Source: Candidatus Methanoperedenaceae archaeon
GTDB taxonomy: Archaea; Halobacteriota; Methanosarcinia; Methanosarcinales; Methanoperedenaceae
NCBI GenBank assembly: GCA_963753595.1
Contig: CAVWCX010000009.1
Coordinates: 1-50,409 of the forward strand
Direction of reading: 5' to 3'
DNA: 50,409 nt
Part shown: piece by piece, positions 22,524 to 27,009 of the stretch
Layout of the letters: the number at the start of each line of letters is the position of its first letter
Position numbering within the stretch: position 1 is the first letter of the stretch
The notes under the pieces: generated by a model
The model's database searches: none
Seen by the model: the letters and a program-made list of their open reading frames with translations, nothing else
What the model was told of the DNA's origin: nothing
Position numbers and translations under genes: made by a program

Positions 22524-22714
22524 TCAAAAGATAACTCGTGCAAGAATATGGAGCTTAATAAACCAATTATTCTCGCAAAAATTACAGAAAAAATGTCTGT
22601 TGCGGAGCTTATGAATTCGTTTTCCGGCTGTGCTTTCGGAACAGGCTCGCATTTATGAAACTGTTGAAATATACCACGAAATATACATGACAGGGATTGC
22701 ACAAAATTCTTCGG
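22524..22714 (+). pseudogene. Degenerate tandem duplicate of the dys upstream region and 5' end
   Basis: Aligns with 22726-22916. ATG 22548 gives MELNKPIILAKITEKMSVAELMNSFSGCAFG, then a +1 insertion leads to a stop. Confidence 0.9.
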
Positions 22715-22749
22715 TCTTTAAACGATCAAAAGATAACTACTACAAGAAT

Positions 22750-23676
22750 ATGGAGCTTAATAAACCAATTATTCCCGCAAGAATAACAGAAAACATGTCT
22801 GTTGATGAGCTTGTGAATTCGTTTTCCGGCTGTGCTTTCGGAGCAGGCCGCATTTATGAAGCTGTTGACATATACCGCGAAATGATACATGACAGGGATT
22901 GCACAAAATTCTTCGGCCTGGCAGGGGCGATGGTACCTGCGGGGATGAGGCATATTGTTAGCGATATGATAAGGAACGGGGAAATCGATATTCTTGTAAG
23001 CACAGGCGCCAACCTTGTCCATGACATGATCGAGTCCCTGGGACTTCATCATTACAAAGGAACTGACATAACAGATGATATCCAGTTAAAACACGAATCG
23101 GTCAACCGTATATATGATGTATTCCTGCCTGAACATCATTTCACGGATCTTGAAACGAAAATGCAATCAATTTTTAAAGAGGTCCCTGAGAAGCTTTCGA
23201 TCACCGAACTTCTATCGCACATCGGAGCAAGACTCGATGACAAAAACTCGATATTAAAAAGCGCATATGATATGGGTGTGCCTGTTTATTGCCCTGCCAT
23301 CCAGGATTCTATCATCGGATTGCAGGCATGGCTGTATAAGCAGACACGTCCTCTCAATGTGGATGTCTTTGCCGATATGAGGGGATTGATCGACAGGTGC
23401 TATGAGGCAAAACGCGCCGGGGTTGTGATAATAGGCGGCGGTGTACCCAAGAATTTCATTTTACAATCAATGCTTGTTACTCCGCGTTCTTTTGATTATG
23501 CGATACAGCTCACCATGGACAGGCCTGAGACCGGCGGACTTTCCGGCGCAACGCTTGACGAAGCGCGCTCATGGGGTAAGATCGGGGAAAATGCAAGGTC
23601 AGTGACAGTGTATTCTGATGCGACAATCACGCTTCCCTTGATCGTTGCAGCGGCAAAAAGTGGGAAATCAAAATAA
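22750..23676 (+). CDS. dys: Deoxyhypusine synthase
   Basis: STGANLVHD, GGGVPKNF and GGLSGATLDEARSWGK (catalytic Lys present). The true start is 22750; the ORF-track extension comes from the duplicate. Confidence 0.92.
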   Translation: MELNKPIIPARITENMSVDELVNSFSGCAFGAGRIYEAVDIYREMIHDRDCTKFFGLAGAMVPAGMRHIVSDMIRNGEIDILVSTGANLVHDMIESLGLHHYKGTDITDDIQLKHESVNRIYDVFLPEHHFTDLETKMQSIFKEVPEKLSITELLSHIGARLDDKNSILKSAYDMGVPVYCPAIQDSIIGLQAWLYKQTRPLNVDVFADMRGLIDRCYEAKRAGVVIIGGGVPKNFILQSMLVTPRSFDYAIQLTMDRPETGGLSGATLDEARSWGKIGENARSVTVYSDATITLPLIVAAAKSGKSK

Positions 23677-23684
23677 GATCAAAT

Positions 23685-24233
23685 TCAGATAATCTTATTC
23701 TCTCCGATCAGTTTCTGGGTCGCTATCCAGAAGCATATTACAGTAAATGGATATGTTATGAACCCACCCACGCCAAGAGCTGCCCCCATACTATTGATCA
23801 ATAGCAGGATAACGCCGAGTATTATTGAGAATTCGAAATTATCTCTTCCGATCCTGTAGCTTTTTTTGAGTGAGTCTATAGCCCCAAGGTTCTCCCCGAT
23901 CGCGATCGGGATGGCATACTGGAAAAGGGCTATTAGTATCAGTCCCGGGATAATGAGAAGAATTAATCCGGCTACTATTGCCAGGGCGCCAACAATGACC
24001 ATCACCCAGCTTACGGCGAAATAATCAAAACCCTTGAAAACATCTTTTATTTCCACACTTTCCCCCCGGATGATCTTCCTTCCCATTATGTAGAGGCCAA
24101 AAAGCAGTGGAGGCGCCGTGATTATTAAGATCGAACCTATTGCTGCGACCACTGCGGCAACAATAAATATAGCGAATTGTTTCTTATAAATATCAAAACC
24201 TTCACTTAATATATCTTCAACCTTAAAATTCAA
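23685..24233 (-). CDS. Integral membrane protein (DUF975-like)
   Basis: [10 protein letters not shown] and AIDSLKKS motifs; TTG start with GGAG upstream. Confidence 0.7.
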
Positions 24234-24307
24234 AGGATCAACTCCAGATTAATATTATCCCTGACAAAATATATAGTTTATCCTTATTATATAATAAATT
24301 AAAAAGC

Positions 24308-24348
24308 TGTAACAATAGAAAAATTGTAATAATGGAAAACTATATAAG
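24308..24348 (+). promoter_or_regulatory. Promoter of the glnA leader: 17-bp direct repeat with BRE/TATA
   Basis: TGTAACAATAGAAAAAT followed by TGTAATAATGGAAAACT, running into TATATAAG. Confidence 0.55.
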
Positions 24349-24371
24349 TATACAAACGGTAGCCTATAGTC

Positions 24372-24478
24372 GGTCACACATATCCTTCATTTGAGTTATT
24401 CCTCAAGTTGGGTAAAAACACTGTAAACGTTGATTCGATATAAGAATCTGAAAACCAGATGAGGGATATGCAGGGACC
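24372..24478 (+). ncRNA. Candidate structured leader RNA or sRNA upstream of glnA
   Basis: 15-bp stem 24379-24393/24456-24470 with two G-U pairs, closed by GGTC/GACC, with internal hairpins. Confidence 0.6.
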
Positions 24479-24501
24479 AAAAAACCAAAGGAGAAAAGAA
24501 A

Positions 24502-24588
24502 ATGGCAAAACCAATAACGCATAAGTTTCCGGCGTCGAGTATCATAAAAAGGCAAAATTGGCAAAGCAGGACAACTAAAAAGGATTAA
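24502..24588 (+). CDS. Candidate 28-aa small protein/uORF MAKPITHKFPASSIIKRQNWQSRTTKKD
   Basis: AAAGGAG RBS 8 nt before the ATG; lies between the structured leader and glnA. Confidence 0.5.
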   Translation: MAKPITHKFPASSIIKRQNWQSRTTKKD

Positions 24589-24671
24589 ATCACAACACAG
24601 AATGATTTATAATAATAGATTGTAATAAAGAGAAAAAGATAAAGAAGGATAAGAAAAGACAAGTGATGAAT

Positions 24672-25997
24672 ATGGGAATTACAAATGAAGATATATTAAG
24701 ATCCATAGAGGAAAACAAGGTCAGGTTTTTAAGACTCCAATTTGTTGATATTGGCGGAATGGTCAAGAATGTGGGCATTCCTGTATCACAGGCAGAAAAA
24801 GCCCTTACATCAGGAATAGCATTTGACGGTTCATCTATCGAGGGATTTGTCAGGATCGAAGAATCTGACATGATCCTGAAACCTGATAATAACACTTATA
24901 TGATTCTTCCATGGGACGTTAGCGGGGGAAAGGTCGCAAGGATAATATGTGATGTTTACAGGCCGGACGGAAAGCCCTTTGAAGGCGACCCCCGCTATGT
25001 CTTAAAGAGAGCCATTGCAGCTGCTGCCAAAAAAGGTTTTGTAATGAACACAGGGCCTGAGCTTGAATTCTTTTTCTTCAAGAGAAAAGACGGACAGGCA
25101 ACAGTTATCCCCCATGACTTTGGTGGCTATTTTGATTTTCCCCCGATAGACCAGGCCGAAAATATCCGGCAGGATATTGTAGTAGCCCTTGAGAACATGG
25201 GATTCAACATCGAAGCTTCCCATCACGAAGTTTCTATCGGGCAGCATGAGATAGATTTCAAATACAGCGATGCATTAAAGACAGCGGATAATGTCATTAC
25301 CTTCAAGTTCGTAACCAAGACGATCGCGCAGAAAAATGATTTGCATGCGTCTTTTATGCCAAAACCTGTCTTTGGAATAAATGGTTCAGGTATGCATACA
25401 AATATTTCCCTCTTTAAGAATGGAAAAAATGCATTCTATGATGAATCAGACAATATGCAGGTCAGCGATACTTTAAGATATTTCATTGGCGGTCTGAAAA
25501 AACACGTCAAATCCTTCACTGCAGTCACAAATCCTATAGTGAACAGTTATAAGAGGATCGTCCCGGGTTATGAGGCGCCAGTATATATTGCATGGTCAGG
25601 GGCCAACCGCTCATCCATGATACGAATACCGGCAGCAAGAGGAATGAGCACACGCGTTGAACTAAGAAGTCCTGACCCGTCCTGCAACCCATATCTATCA
25701 TTTGCAGTAATACTGATGGCTGGACTTGATGGTATTGATAATAAGATCGACCCGGGTGAGCCGACAACACTTAACCTGTTCCATCTTAATGATGAAGAAC
25801 GAATGAAAAACGGGATCGAATCACTCCCCGGAAGTCTTAAGGAAGCGCTGGATAACCTGGAAACCGACAGCATCATAAAAGATGCACTCGGAGAACATGT
25901 CTACCAGGATTTCATGAGACTTGGAAGGGCAGAATGGGATGCATACAGGATAAGCGTACATGGCTGGGAAATTGAGCGCTACCTGAATATTATATAA
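24672..25997 (+). CDS. glnA: Glutamine synthetase type I
   Basis: FDGSSIEGF, GPELEFF, HHEV...GQHEI, MPKP...NGSGMH, PGYEAP and ELRSPDP motifs. The start could be 24663, 24666 or 24672. Confidence 0.97.
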   Translation: MGITNEDILRSIEENKVRFLRLQFVDIGGMVKNVGIPVSQAEKALTSGIAFDGSSIEGFVRIEESDMILKPDNNTYMILPWDVSGGKVARIICDVYRPDGKPFEGDPRYVLKRAIAAAAKKGFVMNTGPELEFFFFKRKDGQATVIPHDFGGYFDFPPIDQAENIRQDIVVALENMGFNIEASHHEVSIGQHEIDFKYSDALKTADNVITFKFVTKTIAQKNDLHASFMPKPVFGINGSGMHTNISLFKNGKNAFYDESDNMQVSDTLRYFIGGLKKHVKSFTAVTNPIVNSYKRIVPGYEAPVYIAWSGANRSSMIRIPAARGMSTRVELRSPDPSCNPYLSFAVILMAGLDGIDNKIDPGEPTTLNLFHLNDEERMKNGIESLPGSLKEALDNLETDSIIKDALGEHVYQDFMRLGRAEWDAYRISVHGWEIERYLNII

Positions 25998-26019: not shown

Positions 26020-27009
26020 ATGAACACAACAACTATAGACTCAATGGTTCAAAGAAAACTCATAGAGATACTGCGGATACTACATGAGAACCAGGATCCT
26101 ATAGGGGCACGGCTAATTGCCGACAGGATGAATGACCGCGGATACCCCATAGGAGAAAGGGGTGTCCGTTATCACCTTCGCATCCTTGATGAGCGCGGTC
26201 TCACCAAGCGCCAGGGCTATGACGGAAGGACCATCACCGAGCGCGGGACAAAGGAACTTGAAAATGCACTTGTCGGGGACAGGATGGGTTTTATCATAAC
26301 AAGAATTGAGAAACTCATTTACGATACTACTTTCGATCTTAAGACCGGGCAGGGAAATGTGATCATCAATACATCGATAATCGATAAAAAAGATATTGAT
26401 GAAACACTTGAGATCATGCAGCATGTGATAAAAGAAGGTTATTGTTTCAGTCCTTTTGTAAAAATAATGGAGGAAGGGAGTCCCAATTATGATATCAATA
26501 TCCCTGAAGGCAAAATTGGAATTGCCACCATGTGCAGCATAACGATCGACGGGATTTTGCTAAAAAATGGTATTCCTGTAACCCCTAAATATGGCGGATT
26601 GCTGGATGTGAATAACAGGAAGCCAACAGGTTTTGAGGATATCATTGTTTATAATGGCACATCTATTGACCCTATGAAAATCTTTATCTCAAAGAAAATG
26701 ACACATGTGCTTGATGCGGTAGATACGGGTTCGGGGAGTCTTCTTGCAAACCTTCGTGAGATCCCGATGTCATCTGTTCTGGAGGCTCAAAAAATTTTGA
26801 AATCTGCAATGAGCATGGGGATAGCGGATATTACACAGATCGGGGAACCCGGGATGTCGGTGCTCAAAGCGCCTGTTGATTCGGGAAAAGTCGGGGTCGT
26901 AGTATATGCGGGGACAAATATCATGGCAGCCGTTGAGGAAAGCGGGATCAATGTGGCAACATTCCCGATATCAACGATTATGGATTTCAAGGAATTGAAA
27001 GCGCTTTGA
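26020..27009 (+). CDS. nrpRI: Nitrogen regulator NrpRI (wHTH plus one NRD domain)
   Basis: IGERGVRYHLRILDERGLT wHTH; TMCSITIDGILLKNGIP and YNGTSIDP NRD motifs; directly follows glnA. Confidence 0.85.
   Translation: MNTTTIDSMVQRKLIEILRILHENQDPIGARLIADRMNDRGYPIGERGVRYHLRILDERGLTKRQGYDGRTITERGTKELENALVGDRMGFIITRIEKLIYDTTFDLKTGQGNVIINTSIIDKKDIDETLEIMQHVIKEGYCFSPFVKIMEEGSPNYDINIPEGKIGIATMCSITIDGILLKNGIPVTPKYGGLLDVNNRKPTGFEDIIVYNGTSIDPMKIFISKKMTHVLDAVDTGSGSLLANLREIPMSSVLEAQKILKSAMSMGIADITQIGEPGMSVLKAPVDSGKVGVVVYAGTNIMAAVEESGINVATFPISTIMDFKELKAL

Follow-up and report, generated by a model that had tools for sequence, protein, structure and literature searches.

The question raised by this locus is what kind of RNA stands in front of the glutamine synthetase gene glnA and the regulator gene nrpR in a Candidatus Methanoperedenaceae archaeon, and for which gene it was originally made. 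The window, i.e., the whole stretch of 50,409 nucleotides that was analysed (assembly GCA_963753595.1, contig CAVWCX010000009.1), contains upstream of glnA an archaeal promoter followed by a predicted structured leader. A sequence-only reading of the window had proposed an unannotated nitrogen-responsive riboswitch, attenuator or small RNA (sRNA) belonging to glnA-nrpR. In our study, the element was found to be a new structured leader RNA, restricted to the family and associated with nitrogen assimilation. The gene order in relatives indicates that it is originally the 5' untranslated region (UTR) of a separate gene encoding a 486-amino-acid (aa) glutamine synthetase of the GSI-beta type, which is deleted here, and that it is not the original leader of glnA-nrpR. 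In this genome the promoter, leader, ribosome-binding site, AUG and a remnant of the lost gene are now fused to the proximal promoter of glnA. No prior description of the element was found in the literature searched, a search that did not cover supplements, which possibly contain transcript maps.

In the predicted structure, the long stem P1, with the closing helix P1a and the longer helix P1b, encloses a core and the hairpin P3 (Table 1). RNAfold of the interval 24368-24482 on the + strand gave −33.4 kcal/mol with a z of −4.05, and 0 of 200 dinucleotide shuffles were as stable; on the − strand, the same interval gave −29.3 kcal/mol with a z of −3.02, and 3 of 200 shuffles were as stable. The TATA box, reading TATATAAG, the 15-of-15 long stem with its two G-U pairs, the GGTC/GACC closure and the inner hairpin that had been described from the letters of the window were all found at their places. 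The minimum-energy fold includes the long stem with its closure and the inner hairpin, but not the competing hairpin P2. The Shine-Dalgarno sequence had an unpaired probability of 0.60 in the window and of 0.5–0.99 in most loci, as calculated from predicted ensembles. No T-run terminator was found after P1 in the window sequence, and inspection of the P1 internal loop by eye revealed no k-turn or bulge-helix-bulge. Partners for the core were also sought by eye in the 3' tail, in the start region and at the glnA ribosome-binding site; no conserved pairing was seen, and these options were dropped. Rfam 15 cmscan of 23600-25200, on both strands and at E up to 10, gave no family match to the leader, in keeping with its description as an RNA of no known family. 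The sole match, to isrA on the − strand outside the leader, was a chance one, with 13.2 bits where the gathering score is 51.

Conservation and covariation in relatives, which the sequence-only reading had named among its checks, were examined with a covariance model, R1, built from 14 loci, and pairs were counted in 46 model-aligned genome copies. In P1, 12 of the 14 modelled pairs were found to have changed on both sides. P1b contributed 7 of 8 such pairs, with 91.9% of cells pairing, and the extended P1a 5 of 6; the 3' arm of P1a varies in relatives (GACC, GAUC, GGCC) and its pairing is retained via G-U. Over the whole modelled structure 89–91% of cells pair, versus at most 54% when the 3' partners were slid by 1–3 columns, and 0 of 500 shuffles equalled the observed pairing values. 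The P1 cells contained 501 Watson-Crick, 64 G-U, 8 A-C and 47 other combinations. The excess of G-U over A-C argues that the selected molecule is the RNA read in the glnA direction, so the earlier suggestion of selection on RNA rather than DNA was borne out, for the + strand only.

Inside P1 the picture is different for each part. P3 pairs in 90.1% of cells, with 1 of 5 pairs changed on both sides, and its loop ranges from 2 to 20 nucleotides among 33 loci. P1 and P3 are separated by a near-invariant stretch, GUCUCUCAAGUUGGG followed by ACAUUGUAAAC, which was retained even in a sister genus. The competing hairpin P2 can form and overlaps the 5' arm of P1 by 3 nucleotides, but it ends at 24406 and not at 24405, as first given, and it is weakly supported: P2 pairs in 85.4% of cells, yet only 1 of its 5 pairs covaries, and of 30 sequences folded only 1 had it in the minimum-energy structure. 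When P2 was forced, the median cost was 4.25 kcal/mol, a figure inflated by the misaligned rows of one clade. The alternative core pairings CAAG/CAUUG and CUCA/UGGG are, like P2, near-invariant, and covariation cannot rank them; a mutual-information scan of all column pairs gave clade signal only. P3 was missing in 6 loci, and 3 further loci contained P1 only, two of which (L064 and L065) precede an intact 486-aa gene. P1 was the only RNA feature kept in all 46 aligned genome loci.

The model R1 matched 41 of the 49 genomes of the own genus (28 of 31 high-quality ones) and, weakly, 2 of 2 genomes of a sister genus of the same family. It matched 0 of 2 genomes of two further genera of the family and 0 of 102 genomes across five other families of the order. 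A single copy was present in nearly all matching genomes, and two copies in two genomes; a pattern scan of metagenome contigs gave 10 further full matches. A DNA search of relatives matched 15 of 24 further genomes of the genus, and only over ~24329-24512, an interval that reaches from the promoter to the first codons after the structure; the 150 nucleotides upstream of the promoter were unalignable with relatives (0.52 identity). The leaders of the sister genus, g15 (L066, L067), were found to keep P1 (11–12 bp) and the core, with P3 replaced by other hairpins. They lie ~60 nucleotides before glnA, without an AUG after the old ribosome-binding site. In their promoters the TATA box is followed by GTACC, the opposite half of the palindrome described below.

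The leader was found before an open reading frame (ORF) in 46 of 46 genome loci. Forty-five of the genome copies precede a glutamine synthetase gene, 13 of them the 486-aa gene and 32 glnA; the remaining copy precedes the ammonium transporter gene amtB (Pfam PF00909), and in all 10 metagenome copies a glutamine synthetase gene follows the leader. The proposed link to nitrogen is thus upheld by two types of glutamine synthetase and one ammonium transporter, as well as by the likeness of the promoter to nitrogen-regulated promoters of a Methanosarcina-like genus. In the 13 loci, the AUG at the end of the motif is the start codon of a type I glutamine synthetase gene of 482–486 aa (two loci are cut by the contig end), the product of which is of the GSI-beta kind and 45% identical to GlnA of the window. 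Among five relatives for which longer stretches were examined, three contained the leader, the 486-aa gene, a hairpin with T-runs, a conserved promoter CCGAATGATTTAT..., glnA and nrpR, in this order; the fourth, G003, has two leader copies and is described below; in the fifth, no match to glnA or nrpR was found after the 486-aa gene within the stretch examined. The association with glnA-nrpR, as first described, was therefore right for the present arrangement in the window and wrong for the origin of the leader, and glnA was found to keep a proximal promoter of its own.

Two of the additional copies deserve mention. One genome, G003 (L073, C42:1-16000), has the leader twice on a single contig, as a short variant followed by glnA and nrpR and as a minimal variant followed by the 486-aa gene and a second nrpR paralogue, whose product is 67% identical to NrpR of the window. 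The copy before the ammonium transporter gene (L060, G050:C73) is a second copy, with a diverged promoter block and a 17-codon remnant.

The loss of the 486-aa gene can be followed in a graded series. The intact gene starts with MATPTPEKLLEFIKEKNV..., and remnants keep ~27, 18, 15 or ~12 of its first codons (L069, L070, L071). More decayed remnants, of 36–43 codons, end at the TAA inside the proximal TATA box, which is located at 24610-24612 in the window. All the remnant loci retain the leader and the proximal promoter of glnA. The differing junctions of the remnants suggest several independent deletions of the gene. The window assembly is 92% complete and contains a single glutamine synthetase gene.

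Studying the genomes without the 486-aa gene is important for judging whether the leader still matters. In 17 such genomes (136 pairs), the mean identity was 0.89 in the 41-nucleotide promoter block and 0.73 in the structured leader, followed by 0.60 in the body of the remnant ORF, 0.52 in the 150 nucleotides upstream and 0.50 at the four-fold sites of glnA. In the 32 rows from which the gene is missing, 91.8% of P1 cells pair and 12 of 14 pairs have changed on both sides; the 13 rows with the gene give 88.8% and 5 of 14. Judged from these identities and from the pairing, the promoter and the leader are under purifying selection after the loss of the gene. Purifying selection on the remnant peptide, in a test as for an sP26-like small protein, was not found from codon-position counts, the substitutions being spread evenly (280/362/316 and 113/133/128). 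The remnant frame was open for at least 36 codons in 16 of the 17 genomes; the other two frames met a stop within 0–20 codons wherever one was present, and one frame in one locus was stop-free. Only the remnant of the window stops early, at codon 29. This pattern suggests that translation through the remnant region matters and not its product.

The promoter adds to the nitrogen link. The (A)GAAAACTAT(A/T)TAAGT block was near-invariant across the 46 aligned loci, and the invariant 22-mer spans the predicted transcription start (~24368-24372), a position that follows solely from the spacing to the TATA box. The operator of NrpR in Methanococcus maripaludis, given as GGAAN6TTCC in passages of PMC2723118, was not present in 24320-24420. 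A nearer likeness was found with sRNA154 of Methanosarcina mazei, a nitrogen-starvation sRNA that, according to passages of PMC5867862 and PMC11549558, stabilises the mRNAs of glnA1, nifH and nrpA and masks the ribosome-binding site of glnA2. With the help of a primer taken from a passage of PMC11549558, sRNA154 was located in 3 genomes of the Methanosarcina-like genus g12. Its promoters contain a perfect CGGTA-N6-TACCG directly after the TATA box, and glnA1 of the same 3 genomes contains GGTA-N6-TACC after the TATA box (two exact, one with a single mismatch). In the window, CGGTAG starts 16 nucleotides from the first TATA-box base, the same spacing as in the 3 sRNA154 promoters, and CGGT recurs 14 nucleotides later in both. 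From its position at glnA1 and sRNA154, GGTA-N6-TACC would be an NrpR site, and we infer that the 22-mer is a diverged NrpR-type operator, so that induction under nitrogen limitation is expected. A candidate Methanosarcina operator, ACC-N7-GGT, was dropped in favour of this palindrome, as it was not found with NrpR in the literature searched.

Additional observations were made on operators and regulators. In the genus g12, a second perfect CGGTA-N6-TACCG was present at L100 (G100:C1:951879-951894) and at L099 (G149:C1:1578008-1578023). The L100 site follows a TATA box and has no adjoining ORF of at least 80 aa, and may belong to a further small gene or sRNA under nitrogen control. Contig C2 of G000 contains, at 79020-79727, a second NrpR-like gene, which matched the regulatory domain only (41% identity, residues 91-326) and lies ~12 kb from amtB and two PII genes (65531-67607); an NrpRII-like partner would fit this gene. 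The proximal block GAATGATTTATAA of glnA resembles a conserved GGAATGAGATTTATATA ~170 nucleotides upstream of glnA1 in the Methanosarcina-like genus (L101-L103), and the two may represent an old common promoter of GSI-alpha-type glnA genes.

The features of the locus are listed in Table 1. The likely start of glnA is the ATG at 24672, preceded by GUGAU, and a divergent membrane-protein gene lies upstream of the leader. Elsewhere in the window, residues 33-97 of deoxyhypusine synthase matched 22524-22718 by tblastn (71% identity), overlapping the gene start at 22630, which could reflect a short duplication, internal or in tandem, or a wrongly placed start of the deoxyhypusine synthase gene.

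Table 1. Positions of promoter, leader RNA and gene features in the window.
Feature	Position	Strand	Evidence or remark
Distal archaeal promoter: element like the B recognition element (BRE-like), GGAAAAC, then TATA box TATATAAG (24341-24348)	24334-24348	+	Read from sequence
Invariant 22-mer AAACGGTAGCCTATAGTCGGTC, putative NrpR-type operator, in the interval from TATA box to stem	24354-24375	+	Highest conservation of the locus
Full match to leader covariance model R1, predicted 5' end to AUG	24367-24504	+	130.5 bits, E 9.2e-26
P1a, 5' arm GGUC; partner GACC at 24475-24478	24372-24375	+	Sequence and RNAfold
P1b with extension, 5' arm CATATCCTTCATTTG; partner CAGATGAGGGATATG at 24456-24470	24379-24393	+	15/15 pairs, exactly two G-U
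Hairpin P2, UUGAG-UUAUUC-CUCAA, 16 nucleotides	24391-24406	+	Can form; 3-nucleotide overlap with 5' arm of long stem
Near-invariant core CUCAAGUUGGG (consensus GUCUCUCAAGUUGGG)	24402-24412	+	Invariant alignment columns
Hairpin P3, GAUUC-loop-GAAUC (GATTC-GATATAA-GAATC)	24432-24448	+	Sequence, RNAfold
3' arms of P1b (24456-24470) and P1a (24475-24478)	24456-24478	+	Sequence, RNAfold, covariation
Shine-Dalgarno GGAG of the ORF after the leader	24490-24493	+	AGGAGA near-invariant in relatives
28-codon ORF MAKPITHKFPASS..., decayed N-terminal remnant of 486-aa gene	24502-24588	+	Graded series in relatives
Proximal glnA promoter GAATGATTTATAA	24600-24612	+	Conserved in alignments with relatives
glnA, 444-aa GSI-alpha-type glutamine synthetase	24663-25997	+	Pfam Gln-synt_N, Gln-synt_C; NCBIfam TIGR00653
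nrpR, winged helix (HTH_12, PF08461) and single NrpR regulatory domain (NRD1_2, PF01995)	26020-27009	+	Pfam

How the element works can be proposed with moderate confidence. The reading we favour is that of a cis-acting leader of a nitrogen-regulated promoter, in which P1 would protect the mRNA and the core would dock a trans factor, and which would now serve as distal promoter and leader of glnA-nrpR. The RNA of ~110 nucleotides, in which P1 encloses the near-invariant core and the variable hairpin P3, is placed directly before glutamine synthetase genes, and the putative NrpR-type operator would lead to its transcription under nitrogen limitation. P1 would protect the 5' end of the mRNA, since it begins 4–8 nucleotides from the predicted 5' end and is kept in all 46 loci. 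At the core, a factor acting in trans, be it a protein, an RNA or a metabolite, would dock and modulate either the stability or the translation of the ORF that starts ~25 nucleotides downstream. In the window, the transcripts from the distal promoter would read through into glnA-nrpR, because no T-run intervenes, and the remnant ORF would be kept open so that ribosomes follow the polymerase until glnA.

Several points weigh against this proposal. The transcription start, the transcript ends and the nitrogen response are all deduced from sequence features. The window contains a half-site only, as the right half reads AGTC and TACC is absent, and no second copy of the 22-mer (up to 4 mismatches) or of its 17-mer core (up to 3 mismatches) was found in the genome. 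Upstream of amtB in this genome no clear copy of the operator was present; there and at the two genes flanking the PII locus, only TATA-like matches to the operator were found. With the Shine-Dalgarno sequence mostly unpaired in predicted ensembles, the leader shows no simple expression platform. The core can pair in three mutually exclusive ways, which leaves the helices inside P1 ambiguous, and the loss of the core in the three P1-only loci means that it is dispensable in some lineages. The pair counts given above are inflated toward the structure, the alignment having been fitted to the model and the sequences being related.

A metabolite-sensing riboswitch is possible, and in our estimate rather improbable. 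In such an RNA, the junction of P1, core and P3 would be an aptamer for a metabolite of nitrogen status such as glutamine, glutamate or 2-oxoglutarate, which would alter the translation or stability of glutamine synthetase mRNA. The leader is a conserved, structured domain of a 5' UTR with covarying stems and an invariant core, as is generic for riboswitches, and the near-invariant nucleotides of junction and loop together with a hairpin of variable loop are typical of aptamers. The exclusive occurrence of the element with glutamine synthetase and amtB genes would also suit a riboswitch, and glutamine riboswitches are described in PMC6212724 as controlling gifB and glutamine synthetase in cyanobacteria. 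However, Rfam gave no match at E up to 10 to any family, those of the glutamine riboswitches included, no alternative fold that hides the ribosome-binding site was predicted and no terminator follows. In addition, P1 and the gene persist in 3 loci that have lost the core and in 6 others that have lost P3.

An extended form of this idea is speculative, and we would put little weight on it. The leader could be the first archaeal nitrogen-sensing riboswitch-like RNA, with the CUCUCAAGUUGGG core binding a nitrogen signal, which has been rewired to glnA-nrpR with coupling through a leader ORF. If this is true, the signal at CUCUCAAGUUGGG would be glutamine, 2-oxoglutarate or a PII- or NrpR-type protein, and the leader would be a relative of sRNA154 in function, encoded in cis. 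The loss of the GSI-beta-type gene would have rewired it repeatedly onto glnA-nrpR, and a leader ORF that is translated without regard to its sequence would couple the decision to the transcription of glnA and of the repressor gene.

It is unlikely that the element is a trans-acting or dual-function sRNA, the counterpart of Methanosarcina sRNA154 in this family, which processing would set free to act on the mRNAs of other nitrogen genes, especially in genomes which, like this one, are without the original gene. The layout of the promoter and the architecture of the RNA do match those of sRNA154, the leader is under selection after the gene loss and an extra copy precedes amtB. No homologue of sRNA154 was found in this genome: nhmmer with a 3-sequence sRNA154 profile gave no match at E up to 10, the only BLAST match was 18 nucleotides inside an ORF, and a pattern of the sRNA154 primer was found in none of 48 genomes of the family at up to 2 mismatches. 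Nevertheless, no T-run terminator follows P1, and the ribosome-binding site and AUG are conserved, with a full-length gene starting there in 13 loci. Homology of the leader itself with sRNA154 was rejected, as neither BLAST nor nhmmer nor the covariance model showed similarity, R1 having given no match to the sRNA154 loci on the right strand and at the right place.

That the leader is here a neutral relic, which served the 486-aa gene and is now decaying while glnA depends on its own proximal promoter, appears very unlikely. The gene it served is indeed gone, the remnant ORF shows no constraint on its peptide and is cut short by an early stop in this genome alone, and the promoter of glnA is conserved. 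Against this, the identities of leader and promoter are far above those of remnant, spacer and four-fold sites, P1 pairing and compensatory changes are equally good in the 32 rows without the gene as in those with it, and the remnants with different junctions all keep the leader. Conservation at the DNA level only, of a promoter and protein-binding sites with an incidental RNA fold, can be set aside as highly improbable: conservation does peak in the 22-mer, which is hardly or not at all transcribed and includes the 5' arm of P1a, but 12 of 14 P1 pairs keep pairing through two-sided changes in arms ~80–100 nucleotides apart, and 64 G-U against 8 A-C are explained only by a + strand RNA.

To our knowledge, archaeal post-transcriptional nitrogen control is known almost only from the sRNAs of Methanosarcina, confirmed archaeal riboswitches are few, and the nitrate- or metal-dependent methane oxidisers that host the leader have as yet no genetic manipulation. 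A covarying RNA of ~110 nucleotides with natural deletion variants and three gene contexts offers a testable handle on how the level of glutamine synthetase is set in them. The locus also provides an example of a regulatory leader that has outlived its gene and has been adopted by a neighbouring operon.

Among the known systems, sRNA154 and the leader both belong to the Methanosarcinales, are both concerned with the control of glutamine synthetase and share the CGGTAG/CGGT spacing in the promoter. Both RNAs are ~110–140 nucleotides long and have a long closing stem just after the operator and two enclosed hairpins, the fold of sRNA154 being a predicted one from g12. On the other hand, sRNA154 is free-standing and acts in trans, whereas on sequence evidence the leader runs directly into a ribosome-binding site and an ORF, and the right half-site of the operator is present in the sRNA154 promoter and absent from that of the leader. 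The glutamine riboswitches, which we take to be the glnA RNA motif (RF01739) and the Downstream-peptide motif (RF01704), resemble the leader as structured 5' leaders tied to glutamine synthetase, sometimes before very short ORFs. The leader differs from them in being archaeal and not cyanobacterial or marine bacterial, in its different and larger fold and in giving no cmscan match. NrpR-repressed promoters of methanogens and the leader promoter are alike in having a block between the TATA box and the transcription start and in having nrpR in the same gene cluster, and the left half-site CGGTA is identical to that of the GGTA-N6-TACC promoters of g12. They differ in that GGAAN6TTCC is absent here, only one half of GGTA-N6-TACC is present and the operator is a putative one. 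In bacteria, 5'-terminal stem-loops stabilise mRNAs against decay that depends on the 5' end. These are simple hairpins without an invariant internal core, unlike the leader; the leader is like them in its very stable stem, which lies within a few nucleotides of the predicted 5' end and was retained in every variant.

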